From positions 16,820-80,819 of the forward strand of contig CAZWIA010000001.1 of the NCBI GenBank assembly GCA_964633955.1: a DNA stretch of 64,000 nucleotides, given 5' to 3'. Of this stretch, positions 2,105 through 13,228 are shown piece by piece (positions within the stretch are counted from its first letter, which is position 1; every line of letters begins with the position of its first letter). The DNA comes from an uncultured Candidatus Peribacteria bacterium. Its GTDB lineage: Bacteria; Patescibacteriota; Gracilibacteria; Peribacterales; Peribacteraceae. The position numbers and the translations under genes are program-made. The notes beneath the pieces were generated by a model. The model was not told the origin of the DNA, did not search any database, and saw nothing but the letters and a program-made list of their open reading frames with translations.

Positions 2105-2881
2105 TCAGACCGTCACCCGCACGTACGCGGTCACGTTCACGCCGCCCAGGTACTGGCTCACGGTCTTCCCGGAATCCTTCACGAACGGCTGGGTCATGAG
2201 GGCGCTCTCCTCCCGGAACTTGCGCTCCTTGCCCTGCATGATCTTCTCTTGGATCTCCGCGGGCTTTGGGTCTCCCTTCATCTGCTCCAGCCAGATCTCC
2301 CGCTCCGCAGATACCGCTTCCGCCGGCACGTCCTCCGGCTTCACGTACGCGGGACTCATGGCGGCCGCGTGCATGGCAACGTCCTTGGCGGTTTCCTCCT
2401 TGCCCGTGCCGTCCAGCCCCACCAGCACGCCGATCTTCCGGTTGCTGTGGACGTACGTGCCCACGGACGGCGCCTGGATCTCCCGCACTTCCCCCAAGGA
2501 GATATTCTCTCCCAGCTTCTGGACGGCCTCCGGGATCAGGGTATCGATCGTCCCCTTGGCGCCGGCCTCTCCGTGTTCCAATACCGTCTCCGCCAGCTTC
2601 TGGCCAAATGCCTGGAAGTCATCCGACCGGGAGACGAAGTCCGTCTCGCACCGGATGAGGACCAATGCCGCCTTGCCCGTTCCGGCTGCGGCAAAGATGG
2701 CGCCTTCCCGCTGTTCGCGGTCGGCCTTCTTCACGGCACCCGCAATGCCCTTCTTGCGCAGGATCTCAATGGCTTTCTCCTGGTCGCCCTGCGCTTCCTC
2801 CAGGGCCTGCTTCACGGCCGTGATGGAAACGCCCGTGCGGGCGCGGAGAGCGGCAACGTCGGCGGCGGAAATGGTGGACAT
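2105..2881 (-). CDS. tsf: Elongation factor Ts
   Basis: N-terminal UBA-like MSTISAADVAALRARTGVSITAVKQALEEAQGDQEKAIEILRKKG. It lies downstream of rpsB, the classic operon order. Confidence 0.95.
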   Translation of the reverse strand: MSTISAADVAALRARTGVSITAVKQALEEAQGDQEKAIEILRKKGIAGAVKKADREQREGAIFAAAGTGKAALVLIRCETDFVSRSDDFQAFGQKLAETVLEHGEAGAKGTIDTLIPEAVQKLGENISLGEVREIQAPSVGTYVHSNRKIGVLVGLDGTGKEETAKDVAMHAAAMSPAYVKPEDVPAEAVSAEREIWLEQMKGDPKPAEIQEKIMQGKERKFREESALMTQPFVKDSGKTVSQYLGGVNVTAYVRVTV

Positions 2882-10328: not shown

Positions 10329-10588
10329 AAGCGGGGAGAGAGTAGGGGAAGGGCTCTCCCCGGCGCAAGGCATTCCTTGGTGAAACGGCGGGAGAGATAT
10401 TGACATATTCCAGTAAATAGTTTTATTATACATATAGGTCATTCAGACCACCGTTAAGGTCTAGGCTGAGACAAGCGCTCTGTGTCCGTTGCGGGGATGT
10501 AGAGCGCTTGTCTCACCAGGAACCAGACAAGCCCGAACCGGCGGTTCCGGTCGTAGAGTGCCCCGCCAAGCGGGGGGAGGAGATTGCG

Positions 10589-11302
10589 ATGATGAAGAAT
10601 TTTCTGAAACTCTCCAAGAAGACGGTGGACGCCGGCGAGCGGAAGCTCGCCAAGTACATCACGGCGGACCGGTACTTGGCCATGCTGGCGGCGGACGACG
10701 CTGCCATGCAGCGGCTCGCTGCCGCGTGGCCGGAGGCGCCGGTCACCGCCACCAAGGGCACCGCCCTGATGTACGACGCCATCAGCGTCTGCCGGCTCCT
10801 GGGCCTTCCTACCATGGATGCCGGTCCGCCGCCCGCCGCCCGGCGGGACGAGATCATGCTGTACTACCCCGGCTTGTCCCTCCCACAGCTGCGGGATAAC
10901 AAGGCCGTCCGCAGCCGGAATCTCATGCTAATCCAGAACTGGTACGAGCGGCACGCCTGGGGGCGGGAGGGCTTGGAGCTGGGCTACTATGGCGTCCGGC
11001 TGCCTATCCCAGGCTCCAGCAGCCGCGACACCGCGGAGCAGGCGCAGCTCCTGCGCGATGAAGAGCGGGCCCTGCCGGTGTGCATTGGAGCGACGCTGCT
11101 GCTGGTCCACGCGTTGGCCACCTGGCAGGACGGCACGTTCCAGGATCTCCTCCGGAACGATTGGGTCCGATGCCTAGAACAGACGTCCCCTGGCGTCCGT
11201 GCCGGTCTGACGTTCGGCTCGGAGGGTCTGTACGTGGACGTCTACTGGAGTGGCTACCGCGGCTCCAGCCTCTGGGGCGGCTCTGCCCGGAAGGCTTCCT
11301 GA
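10589..11302 (+). CDS. DGR variable (target) protein; C-terminal 38 codons are the VR
   Basis: ATG at 10589 is preceded by ggaggag (the listed ORF starts at TTG 10508). No signal peptide. The C-terminus ...GLYVDVYWSGYRGSSLWGGSARKAS overlaps the VR. Confidence 0.8.
   Translation: MMKNFLKLSKKTVDAGERKLAKYITADRYLAMLAADDAAMQRLAAAWPEAPVTATKGTALMYDAISVCRLLGLPTMDAGPPPAARRDEIMLYYPGLSLPQLRDNKAVRSRNLMLIQNWYERHAWGREGLELGYYGVRLPIPGSSSRDTAEQAQLLRDEERALPVCIGATLLLVHALATWQDGTFQDLLRNDWVRCLEQTSPGVRAGLTFGSEGLYVDVYWSGYRGSSLWGGSARKAS
11176..11290 (+). repeat. DGR variable repeat (VR)
   Basis: 115 bp, with 100/115 identical to TR. All 15 differences fall at TR adenines. Confidence 0.9.
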
Positions 11303-11353
11303 CCTTGATGTTCGGACCCTTGAATTCTTTGAATTCTCGGGCTTGATCTTTGA

Positions 11354-11390
11354 CCGCTTCGTGACCCTCGTCACGGGGCGGTTTTCTTTG
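11354..11390 (+). terminator. Hairpin plus T-tract downstream of VR (terminator and/or DGR target-recognition hairpin)
   Basis: ccgcttcgtgac-cctc-gtcacggggcgg (12-bp stem with 2 G:U pairs, 4-nt loop), followed by ttttctttg. Confidence 0.6.
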
Positions 11391-11649
11391 TGAACGTCTG
11401 GCACTATGCTCATCACGCATTCTGCTCATGTAGCGGCAATCACGGTTTCCGCTCGCCGGATGCTGCTCTCTCCACACTCATCGGAATCCGCGGATCCACG
11501 GAGATGCGGAGCGTATGACGGAGAAGCATCAAGGAGAAGGAAGTCCGTGCCCATTCCTGGCGGAGGTGCTGCAAGGCTACTCCCGCAAACAATTCAGCGG
11601 AAAGATCCGTATGGTTCAATCCGCAGTGATCCCGGACGGGAACAGGCGC

Positions 11650-11764
11650 AGAACAGACGTCCCCTGACAACCGTGCCGATCTGACGTTCAACTCGGAGGG
11701 TCTGAACGTGAACGACAACTGGAGTGACAACCGCAACTCCAACCTCTGGGGCGGCTCTGCCCGG
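11650..11764 (+). repeat. DGR template repeat (TR)
   Basis: Read in the VR frame it has 8 AAC codons (..DNRADLTFNSEGLNVNDNWSDNRNSNLWGGSAR). The 3' 20 nt (tctggggcggctctgcccgg, TR 11745-11764 / VR 11271-11290) are identical to VR. Confidence 0.9.
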
Positions 11765-11774
11765 CACTTCCTTC

Positions 11775-12122
11775 TCATTCTTTCACTGACTTCATCCACC
11801 CTCCAAGCATCCGTCCAATCTCATCGATGCTCTGCTGCAACTGTACGGATTTCCGCAGATCGATCGCTCTGGTGTCCTTGGACAGCCGCAGGAGGAGACG
11901 CAGCAGGTTAAGCCTGGCGCTGACCCGCTCCAGGTGCGGCATCTTCTGGCTTCTTAGGAGTTGGCTCGCGAGCAGGATGCCTTCAAGGATATCGAGAATC
12001 AGATTCTCCACTTTCTGCCAGAGCGTGTACCGGTCGGCCTTGGGGATGAGGCCACGCAGGCCGTGGACCGTCTTGTACAGCTCATATGCCTTCTGGAGAA
12101 TGGGGATATCAGGTGTCTTCAT
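11775..12122 (-). CDS. avd: Avd-like (accessory variability determinant / four-helix-bundle) protein, 115 aa
   Basis: Small, basic and helical. C-terminal SIDEIGRMLGGWMKSVKE and LNLLRLLLRL resemble what I recall of bAvd. It sits between TR and RT but on the opposite strand. Confidence 0.65.
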   Translation of the reverse strand: MKTPDIPILQKAYELYKTVHGLRGLIPKADRYTLWQKVENLILDILEGILLASQLLRSQKMPHLERVSARLNLLRLLLRLSKDTRAIDLRKSVQLQQSIDEIGRMLGGWMKSVKE

Positions 12123-13031
12123 ATGAAAGTGCATGAGGATATCTTCAGCCGGATCATCTCGCCAGAGAACCTTTTCAGCGCTTGGGAGGAGTTTCGCAAA
12201 GGCAAGCAGGCACGGAAGGACGTTCGGCTGTTCGAATGGCAGCTGGAGCCGAATCTGTTTGCGCTCCATCACGAGTTGCGGACCGGAACATACCGTCATG
12301 GTCCGTACAGCGCCTTCACGATCCACGATCCCAAGCGGCGGCGCATCCACAAAGCGGCGGTCAGAGACCGGATCCTGCACCATGCCGTCTTCTCCGTAAT
12401 CAATCCCATCTGGGAGCCGGCGTTCATTGCGCACTCATTCTCTTGCCGGAAGGGCAAGGGGACGCACCGCGGTGTGGACGCGCTGGAGCGGATGCTCCGT
12501 CGGGTAAGCCGCAACTATACGCGGCCCTGCTTTGCGCTGAAGTGTGATGTTCACCAGTTCTTCGCGTCTGTGGACCACGGGATTCTCCTGAAGATTCTGG
12601 GGCGCCGCATCAAGGACCCGAACGTCCTGAGCCTGCTCACGGAGATTATCGGTAGCTTTTCCAGCACATCGATAGGGAAGGGCGTACCTATCGGCAATCT
12701 CACGTCACAACTGTTCGCGAACGTCTATCTCCATGAGTTCGACCAGTTCATCAAGCACCATCTGCGCGTGTGCCACTATGTCCGCTACACGGATGACTTT
12801 GTGGTCGCAAGTGAGGATGAAACCTGGCTTGCATCGTTGATTCCGCTCATCCGGTCGTTTCTCCAAGAGACACTCCGGCTGGACTTGCACCCCCATAAGA
12901 TAGGTATCCGCAAGGAGCGGCAGGGCATCGATTTCCTGGGATACGTCCTGCTCCCGCGCCATCGCGTCCTGCGCACCCGCACAAAGCGCCGCATGGTAAA
13001 AAAATTGAGAGAGAGAGAGAGAGCGTGGTGA
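12123..13031 (+). CDS. DGR reverse transcriptase (C-terminus displaced into another frame, 13033-13152)
   Basis: Motifs PIGNLTSQLFANVYL and YVRYTDDFVV (YxDD). Probable start is ATG 12123; the listed ORF start at 11961 is antisense to avd. Confidence 0.9.
   Translation: MKVHEDIFSRIISPENLFSAWEEFRKGKQARKDVRLFEWQLEPNLFALHHELRTGTYRHGPYSAFTIHDPKRRRIHKAAVRDRILHHAVFSVINPIWEPAFIAHSFSCRKGKGTHRGVDALERMLRRVSRNYTRPCFALKCDVHQFFASVDHGILLKILGRRIKDPNVLSLLTEIIGSFSSTSIGKGVPIGNLTSQLFANVYLHEFDQFIKHHLRVCHYVRYTDDFVVASEDETWLASLIPLIRSFLQETLRLDLHPHKIGIRKERQGIDFLGYVLLPRHRVLRTRTKRRMVKKLRERERAW
13007..13022 (+). repeat. (GA)8 dinucleotide tract preceded by A7 (12998-13004) at the RT frameshift point
   Basis: Read directly: aaaaaaattgagagagagagagagagc. 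Confidence 0.95.
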
Positions 13032-13228
13032 CGGCTTGTTCAATCAGGCCTTCCAGGCGTACTTGGGTGTCCTCTCACACGCGGACGCCTACCGGCTGAC
13101 GCAGGATCTCCGGAACCAGTATGGGTTTTTGGCGCTTCAGGACAAGGAATAGTACGGGCATCCGGTCTGTCTGCCTTCAGGCAGGACTTCCGTTCCTGCC
13201 CATTGATCCGGTCCGCATCCCCCAGTAG

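Follow-up and report, generated by a model that had tools for sequence, protein, structure and literature searches.

Diversity-generating retroelement with an inverted avd gene and a conserved structured RNA upstream of its template repeat in a Peribacteria-like bacterium

The 64,000-nt stretch of an uncultured Candidatus Peribacteria genome analyzed here, referred to as the window, contains a diversity-generating retroelement (DGR) in which a target gene with its variable repeat (VR) is followed by the template repeat (TR), the accessory gene avd on the opposite strand and a reverse transcriptase (RT) gene. This locus is probably a genuine DGR of type B3, which is already catalogued for the candidate phyla radiation (CPR), in which a structured leader RNA upstream of TR would carry out the jobs of the spacer RNA (Sp) located downstream of TR in the Bordetella phage element BPP-1. 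The avd gene, the RT gene and the TR/VR pair are authentic, and the tail-to-tail packing of TR and avd together with the head-to-head packing of avd and RT is the norm of the clade. The structured RNA ends exactly at the 5' edge of TR, a covarying duplex links the segment 5' of this RNA to the 3' boundary of TR, and the leader motif is found almost only in front of a TR with an inverted avd behind it. Judged by sequence relationships, the host is a Peribacteria-like CPR bacterium, since the closest relatives of the RT come from Candidatus Peribacteria and Patescibacteria metagenome-assembled genomes and the window's own genome measures 1.02 Mb at a completeness of 99.8 %.

The identification as a DGR starts from the repeat pair. 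TR (11650-11764) and VR (11176-11290), both on the plus strand, form a 115-nt repeat with 15 mismatches, and TR carries an adenine at every one of them (15/15). VR makes up the last 38 codons of the target gene (10589-11302, plus strand, 237 AA), for which Pfam and NCBIfam scans returned no family match. The 3' end of VR (approximately 11269-11290) is GC-rich, free of adenine and the same as the end of TR, and thus resembles an initiation of mutagenic homing (IMH) element. Differences restricted to TR adenines and a VR that closes an open reading frame (ORF), by which DGRs are recognized, are both present, and so is ongoing adenine mutagenesis of VR. The latter was assessed on contigs, not reads: DNA evidence was taken from Logan contigs of the runs X1 and X2 (one study) and X3 (a second study), and RNA evidence from assembler contigs of the metatranscriptome runs X4, X5, X6 and X8, which carry no strand information. 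VR in RNA run X8 shows 13 differences from the window, all at TR-adenine positions, and VR in DNA run X3 likewise differs from the window only where TR has an A. This variation between samples is direct evidence of in situ diversification, and the element is naturally active at the population level.

The original prediction placed an inverted Avd-like gene directly between TR and RT, with its stop codon 10 nt after the TR end and its ATG back to back with that of RT, and these coordinates proved exact. The avd gene (11775-12122, minus strand, 115 AA) is convergent with TR and head to head with RT; its stop codon (11775-11777) lies 10 nt past the last TR/VR-homologous base (11764), and its ATG, the complement of 12120-12122, adjoins the RT ATG (12123-12125). 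The ORF coordinates also bear out that there is neither a non-coding spacer between TR and RT nor an intergenic space between avd and RT. That the ORF encodes an Avd protein was borne out by the curated family models NF033474 DivGenRetAVD of NCBIfam (84.2 bits, cut-off 80) and bAvd PF22296 of Pfam (63 bits, cut-off 40). In a PDB search with a profile of 21 Avd homologues, only BPP-1 Avd was matched (4dwl with E=1e-4, and 8ub7_B), in both cases as part of a full-length alignment. A four-helix bundle assembled into a pentameric barrel, the fold of Avd, may be supposed from this match. The profile was required for this, as a phmmer search of PDB with the single Avd sequence of the window gave chance matches only. 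Starting from an in-frame ATG at 12134, avd could be four codons longer and would overlap RT, but this start is disfavored because the N-termini of Avd and RT in the closest homologues, those of locus L005, align with the starts at 12122 and 12123. As both proteins begin with Met-Lys, the two adjoining starts create a perfect palindrome of 10 nt, TTCATATGAA, between 12113 and 12132. Elsewhere in the same genome (G000), three further weak matches to the Avd model were found outside the DGR (L002-L004; C2:49215-49532, C7:21672-21932 and C3:3420-3725), which score 26-37 bits, below the cut-off, and are probably other four-helix-bundle proteins.

The RT gene (12123-13031, plus strand) matches RVT_1 and encodes the motifs IGNLTSQ and YTDD, in agreement with the (I/L/V)GxxxSQ and YxDD signatures of the DGR clade. 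Its best PDB match is the BPP-1 protein bRT (8ub7_A, E=6e-48), with group II intron RTs following far behind (8e-23).

The inversion of avd relative to TR and RT does depart from the Bordetella-phage paradigm, as the original prediction stated. Its further claim that the architecture is unusual could not be upheld. Wu et al. 2018 (NAR 46:11, PMC5758913) describe it as architecture B3, TR-(avd)-RT with parentheses for the reverse strand, report it for 90 % of their CPR DGR set, and add that TR and RT may even sit on different strands in DGRs. With TR at 11650-11764 (+), avd at 11775-12122 (-) and RT from 12123 (+), the window has this order and these strands, and it further shares the single upstream target gene, the CPR host and homologous RT and Avd proteins with the B3 DGRs of CPR/Patescibacteria. 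There is no essential difference; the window copy lies toward the compact end of the range, with avd and RT separated by 0 nt and TR and avd by 10 nt, and has a (GA)n run in RT. As the inverted avd has been part of the DGR catalogue since 2017, the layout as originally posed adds little.

The tight geometry is likewise shared by most of the relatives surveyed. Loci were collected with tblastn searches for Avd and RT and with a script for repeat pairs in which 80 % or more of the mismatches are adenine-specific; simple rules served to place the TR ends and start codons, which may be a few bases off. The Avd family model has matches in 123 of the 401 phylum genomes sampled. The layout TR(+), avd(-), RT(+) was found in 19 of the 23 phylum loci having all three parts, and likewise in L009, L010, L012 and L014 from a species-genome collection. 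Exceptions are L016 and L018, which have avd, TR and RT in this order on one strand (type B1), and L005, L007, L008, L021 and L040, in which RT is placed elsewhere. Over 24 B3 loci, the TR end and the avd stop are separated by -24 to 62 nt (median 9, compared to 10 in the window), and by at most 8 nt in 12 of them. The avd and RT starts lie -21 to 37 nt apart (median 3) in the 14 B3 loci in which both starts could be set, and L039 has a distance of 0, as in the window. The geometry of the window is typical, not extreme, among B3 loci.

The possibility that the inverted avd stems from a recent local inversion or from misassembly, a caveat raised along with the original prediction, was checked and can practically be dismissed. 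It could be argued from the closest RT relatives, L005, L007 and L008 (61-70 % identity), as avd and RT are co-stranded there. These loci have the order (RT)-target/VR-TR-(avd), spanning 2200-5030 in L005, with RT upstream of the target gene and on the other strand. However, TR is still convergent with avd in all three, and it is RT that is located elsewhere; therefore, the conserved core of these elements is a TR facing the 3' end of avd. Since TR and RT lie on opposite strands in these loci, a shared TR-RT transcript is impossible there. Furthermore, 23 further loci of the phylum have the order seen in the window, and DNA contigs of X1, X2 and X3, from two studies, cross TR, avd and RT unbroken, which rules out misassembly as well as a private inversion. 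In L008, only residues 5-47 of Avd align, and avd appears truncated.

In alignments of the window with L005, L007 and L008, approximately 130 nt upstream of TR are conserved yet non-coding. An ORF in this segment (11515-11667, 50 AA) was rejected, as it is not conserved and the indels of the relatives are not multiples of three. The structured leader RNA (11547-11649, plus strand) was delimited with an alignment of leaders (A5), pairing energies of its outer stem P1 and a covariance model (R1). It consists of the P1 5' strand (11547-11559), the hairpin P2 (11562-11583), the A-rich strand J2/3 (11585-11596), the hairpin P3 (11597-11624), the linker J3/1 (11625-11636) and the P1 3' strand (11637-11649), which abuts TR. 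The same blocks recur in 27 loci. In the 5' part, these are ...ACUYC, UUGCCC.. in the P1 5' strand, a P2 hairpin, often with GGAG/CUCC, and AAAUAAAAUACA; in the 3' part, a variable P3 hairpin with an AA/GA internal loop is followed by CRGUGA and, after 4-6 nt, by GGAUG and ..GGGCAA. The last block, the P1 3' strand, ends 0-12 nt 5' of TR across loci.

Alignment A5 is a structure-blind MAFFT alignment of 13 leaders for which the structure was stated. Standard pairs occupy 95.8 % of its cells, compared to 75 % in shuffles and 44-52 % after sliding of the partner columns, and both sides change in 19 of the 24 pairs. The covariation score of 0.70 contrasts with 0.28 for shuffles and 0.17-0.20 for slid columns, and it was not attained by any of 500 shuffles. 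P1 was tested by anchored arms, cognate against non-cognate. Pairing of its 5' strand with the 3' tail of the same locus yields -16.3 kcal/mol, compared to -8.3 kcal/mol with the tail of another locus, and none of 20,000 permutations equaled this difference. RNAalifold recovered only P3 from 25 leaders, since in some rows MAFFT had placed the P1 3' strand one column off. Position 11546, at the junction between P1 and the strand preceding it, shows a C>A change in the contigs of X2 and X3.

The duplex around TR, referred to here as the clamp, was tested by anchored arms in the same way, in place of an unanchored duplex search. An earlier search of this unanchored kind, matching the 180 nt upstream against the TR end, had returned long noisy duplexes that did not surpass shuffles for the majority of loci. 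The 5' strand of the clamp, arm a (AAGGAGAAGGAAGT, 11531-11544, plus strand), was found as inverted repeat I6 and pairs with the 3' strand, arm a' (ACTTCCTTCTCATT, 11766-11779, plus strand), at 13 of 14 positions. Arm a' starts two bases past the end of the TR/VR homology and covers, on the opposite strand, the stop codon of avd together with 2 nt of its final sense codon; approximately 15 nt downstream of TR are all that the clamp involves. Its distal sequence differs from locus to locus yet remains complementary, as in L019 (TTGCTTAGA), L026 (GCAAGACAC) and L041 (GCTTAAAG). Cognate arms pair with -12.9 kcal/mol, compared to -7.2 kcal/mol for non-cognate arms, a difference equaled by none of 20,000 permutations and retained without the conserved core. 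A validation set of 16 loci found by the leader model alone gave the same picture (-11.8 compared to -7.0 kcal/mol; 0/20000), and in each of these loci, a TR with adenine-specific mismatches begins 0-42 nt behind the leader.

The association of the leader with an inverted avd was assessed with model R1, for which the window is one of the 13 seed sequences and E-values are rough. R1 matches 11538-11653 of the window at 84.7 bits, a score to be read as that of a seed sequence, and matches the leader in 29 of the collected loci. Over the 401 phylum genomes, 64 matches in 54 genomes were obtained, one of them in the window's own genome. At least 50 of the 64 have an Avd on the opposite strand 118-212 nt downstream (median 174), and none has a downstream Avd on the same strand among the Avd matches listed; the other 14 are located at contig ends or have no Avd among the matches listed. 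The window itself has both parts of the CPR leader arrangement, namely P1-P2-P3 ending at the TR 5' edge and the a:a' clamp.

A scan of the window against Rfam 15 at E<=5 found no relevant family, neither RT-10 nor RT-16, so that the window does not belong to RT-16 by the Rfam threshold. However, Rfam RT-16 (RF03019) scores 42.3 bits in L021 and 37 bits in L062, both below its gathering score of 50, and such sub-threshold scores occur in only 2 of the 36 leader loci. L021 and the RT-16 consensus have in common CUAC-GCCC... in the P1 5' strand, AUAAAAUACA, the P3 hairpin, GGUG and ...GGGC in the P1 3' strand. In contrast to the leader, whose arm a takes part in a TR-spanning clamp, the RT-16 model has a local 5' hairpin in the corresponding region. 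RT-16 is one of the motifs RT-1 to RT-19; its publication gave it neither a function nor a connection to TR, although some RT motifs were speculated to belong to DGRs (Weinberg et al. 2017, PMC5737381). On the basis of these sequence similarities, the leader motif appears to be a distant relative of Rfam RT-16, and its motif class is thus partly known. The placement of the leader before a B3 TR, the clamp and the analogy to Sp were not found in the searchable papers. R1 has no significant match in the B1-type CPR loci L016 and L018. The spacer downstream of TR in L018 contains GAATAAATAC...GGTGA blocks that resemble the B3 upstream leader; this likeness hints at homology with the leader and at a link between the two RNA arrangements.

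In BPP-1, TR is followed by an Avd-binding stem-loop (Sp 3-33) and a primer strand (Sp 47-56), which pairs with TR 118-129 and primes from A56. After two nucleotides, this is followed by a stop-duplex strand (Sp 59-70), whose pairing partner is the 3' end of avd immediately 5' of TR, and then by a short stem-loop, A-minor adenosines, a single-stranded 'thumb ring' and a long stem-loop that binds RT and contains interior loops (Handa et al., bioRxiv 10.1101/2023.10.23.563531). In the CPR leader, the elements succeed one another as in BPP-1 Sp 47-139, with arm a, 0-3 nt, the P1 5' strand, P2, the A-rich strand and P3 with its interior loop; beyond P3, a short linker leads into the P1 3' strand directly 5' of TR. 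The window also resembles BPP-1 (mtd-VR, avd, TR, Sp, brt) in its homologous RT and Avd, the adenine-specific TR/VR differences and the GC-rich IMH-like end. In contrast to BPP-1, its avd is located on the other strand downstream of TR, and in place of the structured non-coding TR-RT spacer of approximately 140 nt, the interval is antisense avd coding sequence except for 10 nt. Furthermore, the window copy has no obvious Avd-binding stem-loop after TR and does not match Rfam RT-10, and its structured RNA lies 5' of TR, joined to the strand preceding TR, which amounts to an apparent circular permutation.

Retron msr-msd RNA also has structured non-template RNA 5' of its template, and its a1/a2 repeats bring the 5' priming site to the template 3' end. 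The CPR leader and clamp share this topology. Unlike retrons, however, the CPR element uses an RT of another clade, shows no sequence similarity, has no known multicopy single-stranded DNA and has a protein-coding template for adenine mutagenesis. By analogy with both systems, the chances seem about balanced that the non-template part of B3 DGR RNA is a circular permutation of the BPP-1 DGR RNA, a retron-like relative of RT-16 whose cDNA synthesis would be primed from the 3' end of arm a (approximately 11544-11546), which the a:a' clamp would hold against the TR 3' end, and would stop at P1. A placement of the BPP-1 elements in a 5' leader would explain why avd can be inverted and packed against TR in most such DGRs.

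Alternatively, the leader may be real but have another job, such as RNA stability, processing, the loading of Avd and RT, or the distinction of the donor TR from the recipient VR, with priming from nicked or 3'-terminal RNA or from target DNA. This is rather improbable. It could be argued that the TR association and the structure were observed directly, while the function was deduced, and Naorem et al. 2017 proposed priming by nicked template RNA for BPP-1. However, the end of the a:a' duplex coincides with the 3' boundary of the TR/VR homology, where cDNA synthesis has to start, and P1 adjoins the TR 5' edge, where it is expected to stop. Moreover, the succession of primer strand, stop-duplex strand, stem-loop, A-rich strand and long stem-loop mirrors that of BPP-1 Sp.

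According to the reading in which the leader does the jobs of Sp, TR would be transcribed as its own RNA of approximately 360 nt (~11417 to ~11780) from a promoter just after the terminator of the target gene. Within this RNA, the leader would take over the BPP-1 Sp roles: arm a would serve as primer strand, P1 would form the stop duplex, and RT would bind to P2, the A-rich strand and P3. The avd and RT genes would be expressed at a low level from promoters inside each other's coding regions. With these jobs done upstream, antisense avd RNA would not be needed, and avd could pack against TR.

The RNA contigs are consistent with such a separate transcript. RNA contigs of the target gene cover 10517-11292 (X4, X5, X6, X8), and further contigs cover 11317-11679 or 11433-11679 in X4, X5 and X6, with a start at 11433 in X5 and X6; an additional contig in X6 covers 11650-11734. 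The RNA depth of leader and TR is approximately half that of the target gene. Between 11756 and 13400, which includes avd, RT and the start of gyrB, no RNA contig was found in the four metatranscriptomes, where contigs show presence and not absence. This patchy cover argues for RNA over contaminating DNA and suggests an abundant leader-TR RNA and far lower levels of avd/RT mRNA. The target gene is followed by a terminator-like GC-rich hairpin and T-run (11352-11383, plus strand; 14 pairs, TTTTCTTT tail in the terminator scan), whose position is kept in L005, L007 and L008 and which is the counterpart of the inverted repeat downstream of the IMH in other DGRs. Behind it, a -10-like box TATGCT (11405-11410, plus strand) aligns with TATACT, TATGCT and TACACT in L005, L007 and L008 and is a candidate promoter of the separate TR RNA; the contig start at 11433 in two runs agrees with a transcription start near 11417.

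The original prediction had raised the problem that the spacer needed for priming would here be antisense avd RNA. With a conserved cis-acting RNA upstream of TR, this problem is most likely absent. The corresponding explanation, in which the TR transcript passes through avd and perhaps on into RT and the antisense avd RNA holds the priming and RT-binding elements, is unlikely. Stem-loops do occur within 100 nt downstream of TR in many DGRs, including those of CPR (Handa et al., bioRxiv 10.1101/2023.10.23.563531). However, the conserved and covarying RNA sits upstream of TR, and the segment from 11756 yielded no RNA contig despite leader and TR being present at about half the target depth. In L005, L007 and L008, RT is not downstream of avd, which makes the variant with a shared TR-RT transcript impossible there. 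Finally, terminator-like elements of A-tract, hairpin and T-tract lie between TR and avd in 8 B3 relatives with gaps of at least 24 nt. These elements fit bidirectional terminators or are possibly an Avd-binding stem-loop. A 72-nt hairpin segment located between TR and avd in L005, L007 and L008 is absent from the window. In L007 (~2560-2610, minus strand), a long (CT)n run lies within a hairpin between TR and the avd stop.

Several observations speak against a separate TR RNA with a priming leader. The unstranded RNA contigs break at the TR/VR repeat and leave the 3' end of the TR RNA unmapped, so that read-through into antisense avd is possible, and the 10-nt TR-avd gap of the window has no terminator hairpin, which also favors an antisense spacer. 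Promoter prediction returned no sigma-70-type candidate for avd, RT or the TR RNA. The single-sequence fold of 11505-11830 is not significant by itself (z = -1.23). The priming and stopping role proposed for the leader is drawn from the order of its elements and not from sequence homology with Sp. In addition, RT is frameshifted in this assembly, so this allele is probably off.

The frameshift concerns a (GA)8 run (13007-13023), past which the RT frame ends at a TGA (13029-13031). The C-terminal part of RT (LFNQAFQAYLGVLSHADAYRL..., 13036-13153, plus strand) continues in the +1 frame in this assembly, and L005 has the same C-terminus within one frame. The number of GA units in DNA contigs is 8 in X1, 9 in X2, where the frame is intact, and 7 in X3. 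This variation fits an on/off switch by slippage. A decaying, inactive DGR whose tight packing is a by-product of deletion is a very unlikely explanation. The broken RT frame and the missing 72-nt hairpin segment would fit decay, but VR differs between samples only at TR-adenine positions, the sister sample with (GA)9 has an intact frame, and leader and TR RNA are expressed. Furthermore, gaps as short as 8 nt or less are found in half of the B3 loci (12/24), which does not fit a deletion by-product.

At the avd/RT junction of 10 of the 24 B3 loci (L009, L010, L014, L026, L027, L029, L030, L032, L042 and L043), a G7-G11 homopolymer is located on the RT-sense strand, a few bases 5' of the RT start, and L031 has (GT)6 at this place. 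The junction of the window has no homopolymer tract of this kind. The tract is a candidate for hypermutable control of RT and/or avd expression.

To our knowledge, the mechanistic understanding of DGR priming derives entirely from a single phage element, in which the essential RNA lies downstream of TR. This downstream-RNA arrangement of BPP-1 is impossible in the layout that dominates CPR DGRs (90 %, Wu et al. 2018, PMC5758913). The leader and the TR-spanning clamp provide a concrete model, open to mutation, of how cDNA synthesis may be primed and stopped in these elements. The model would also give the orphan Rfam motif RT-16 a likely function, and the compact unit of one RNA and two proteins is a potential basis for targeted mutagenesis tools.

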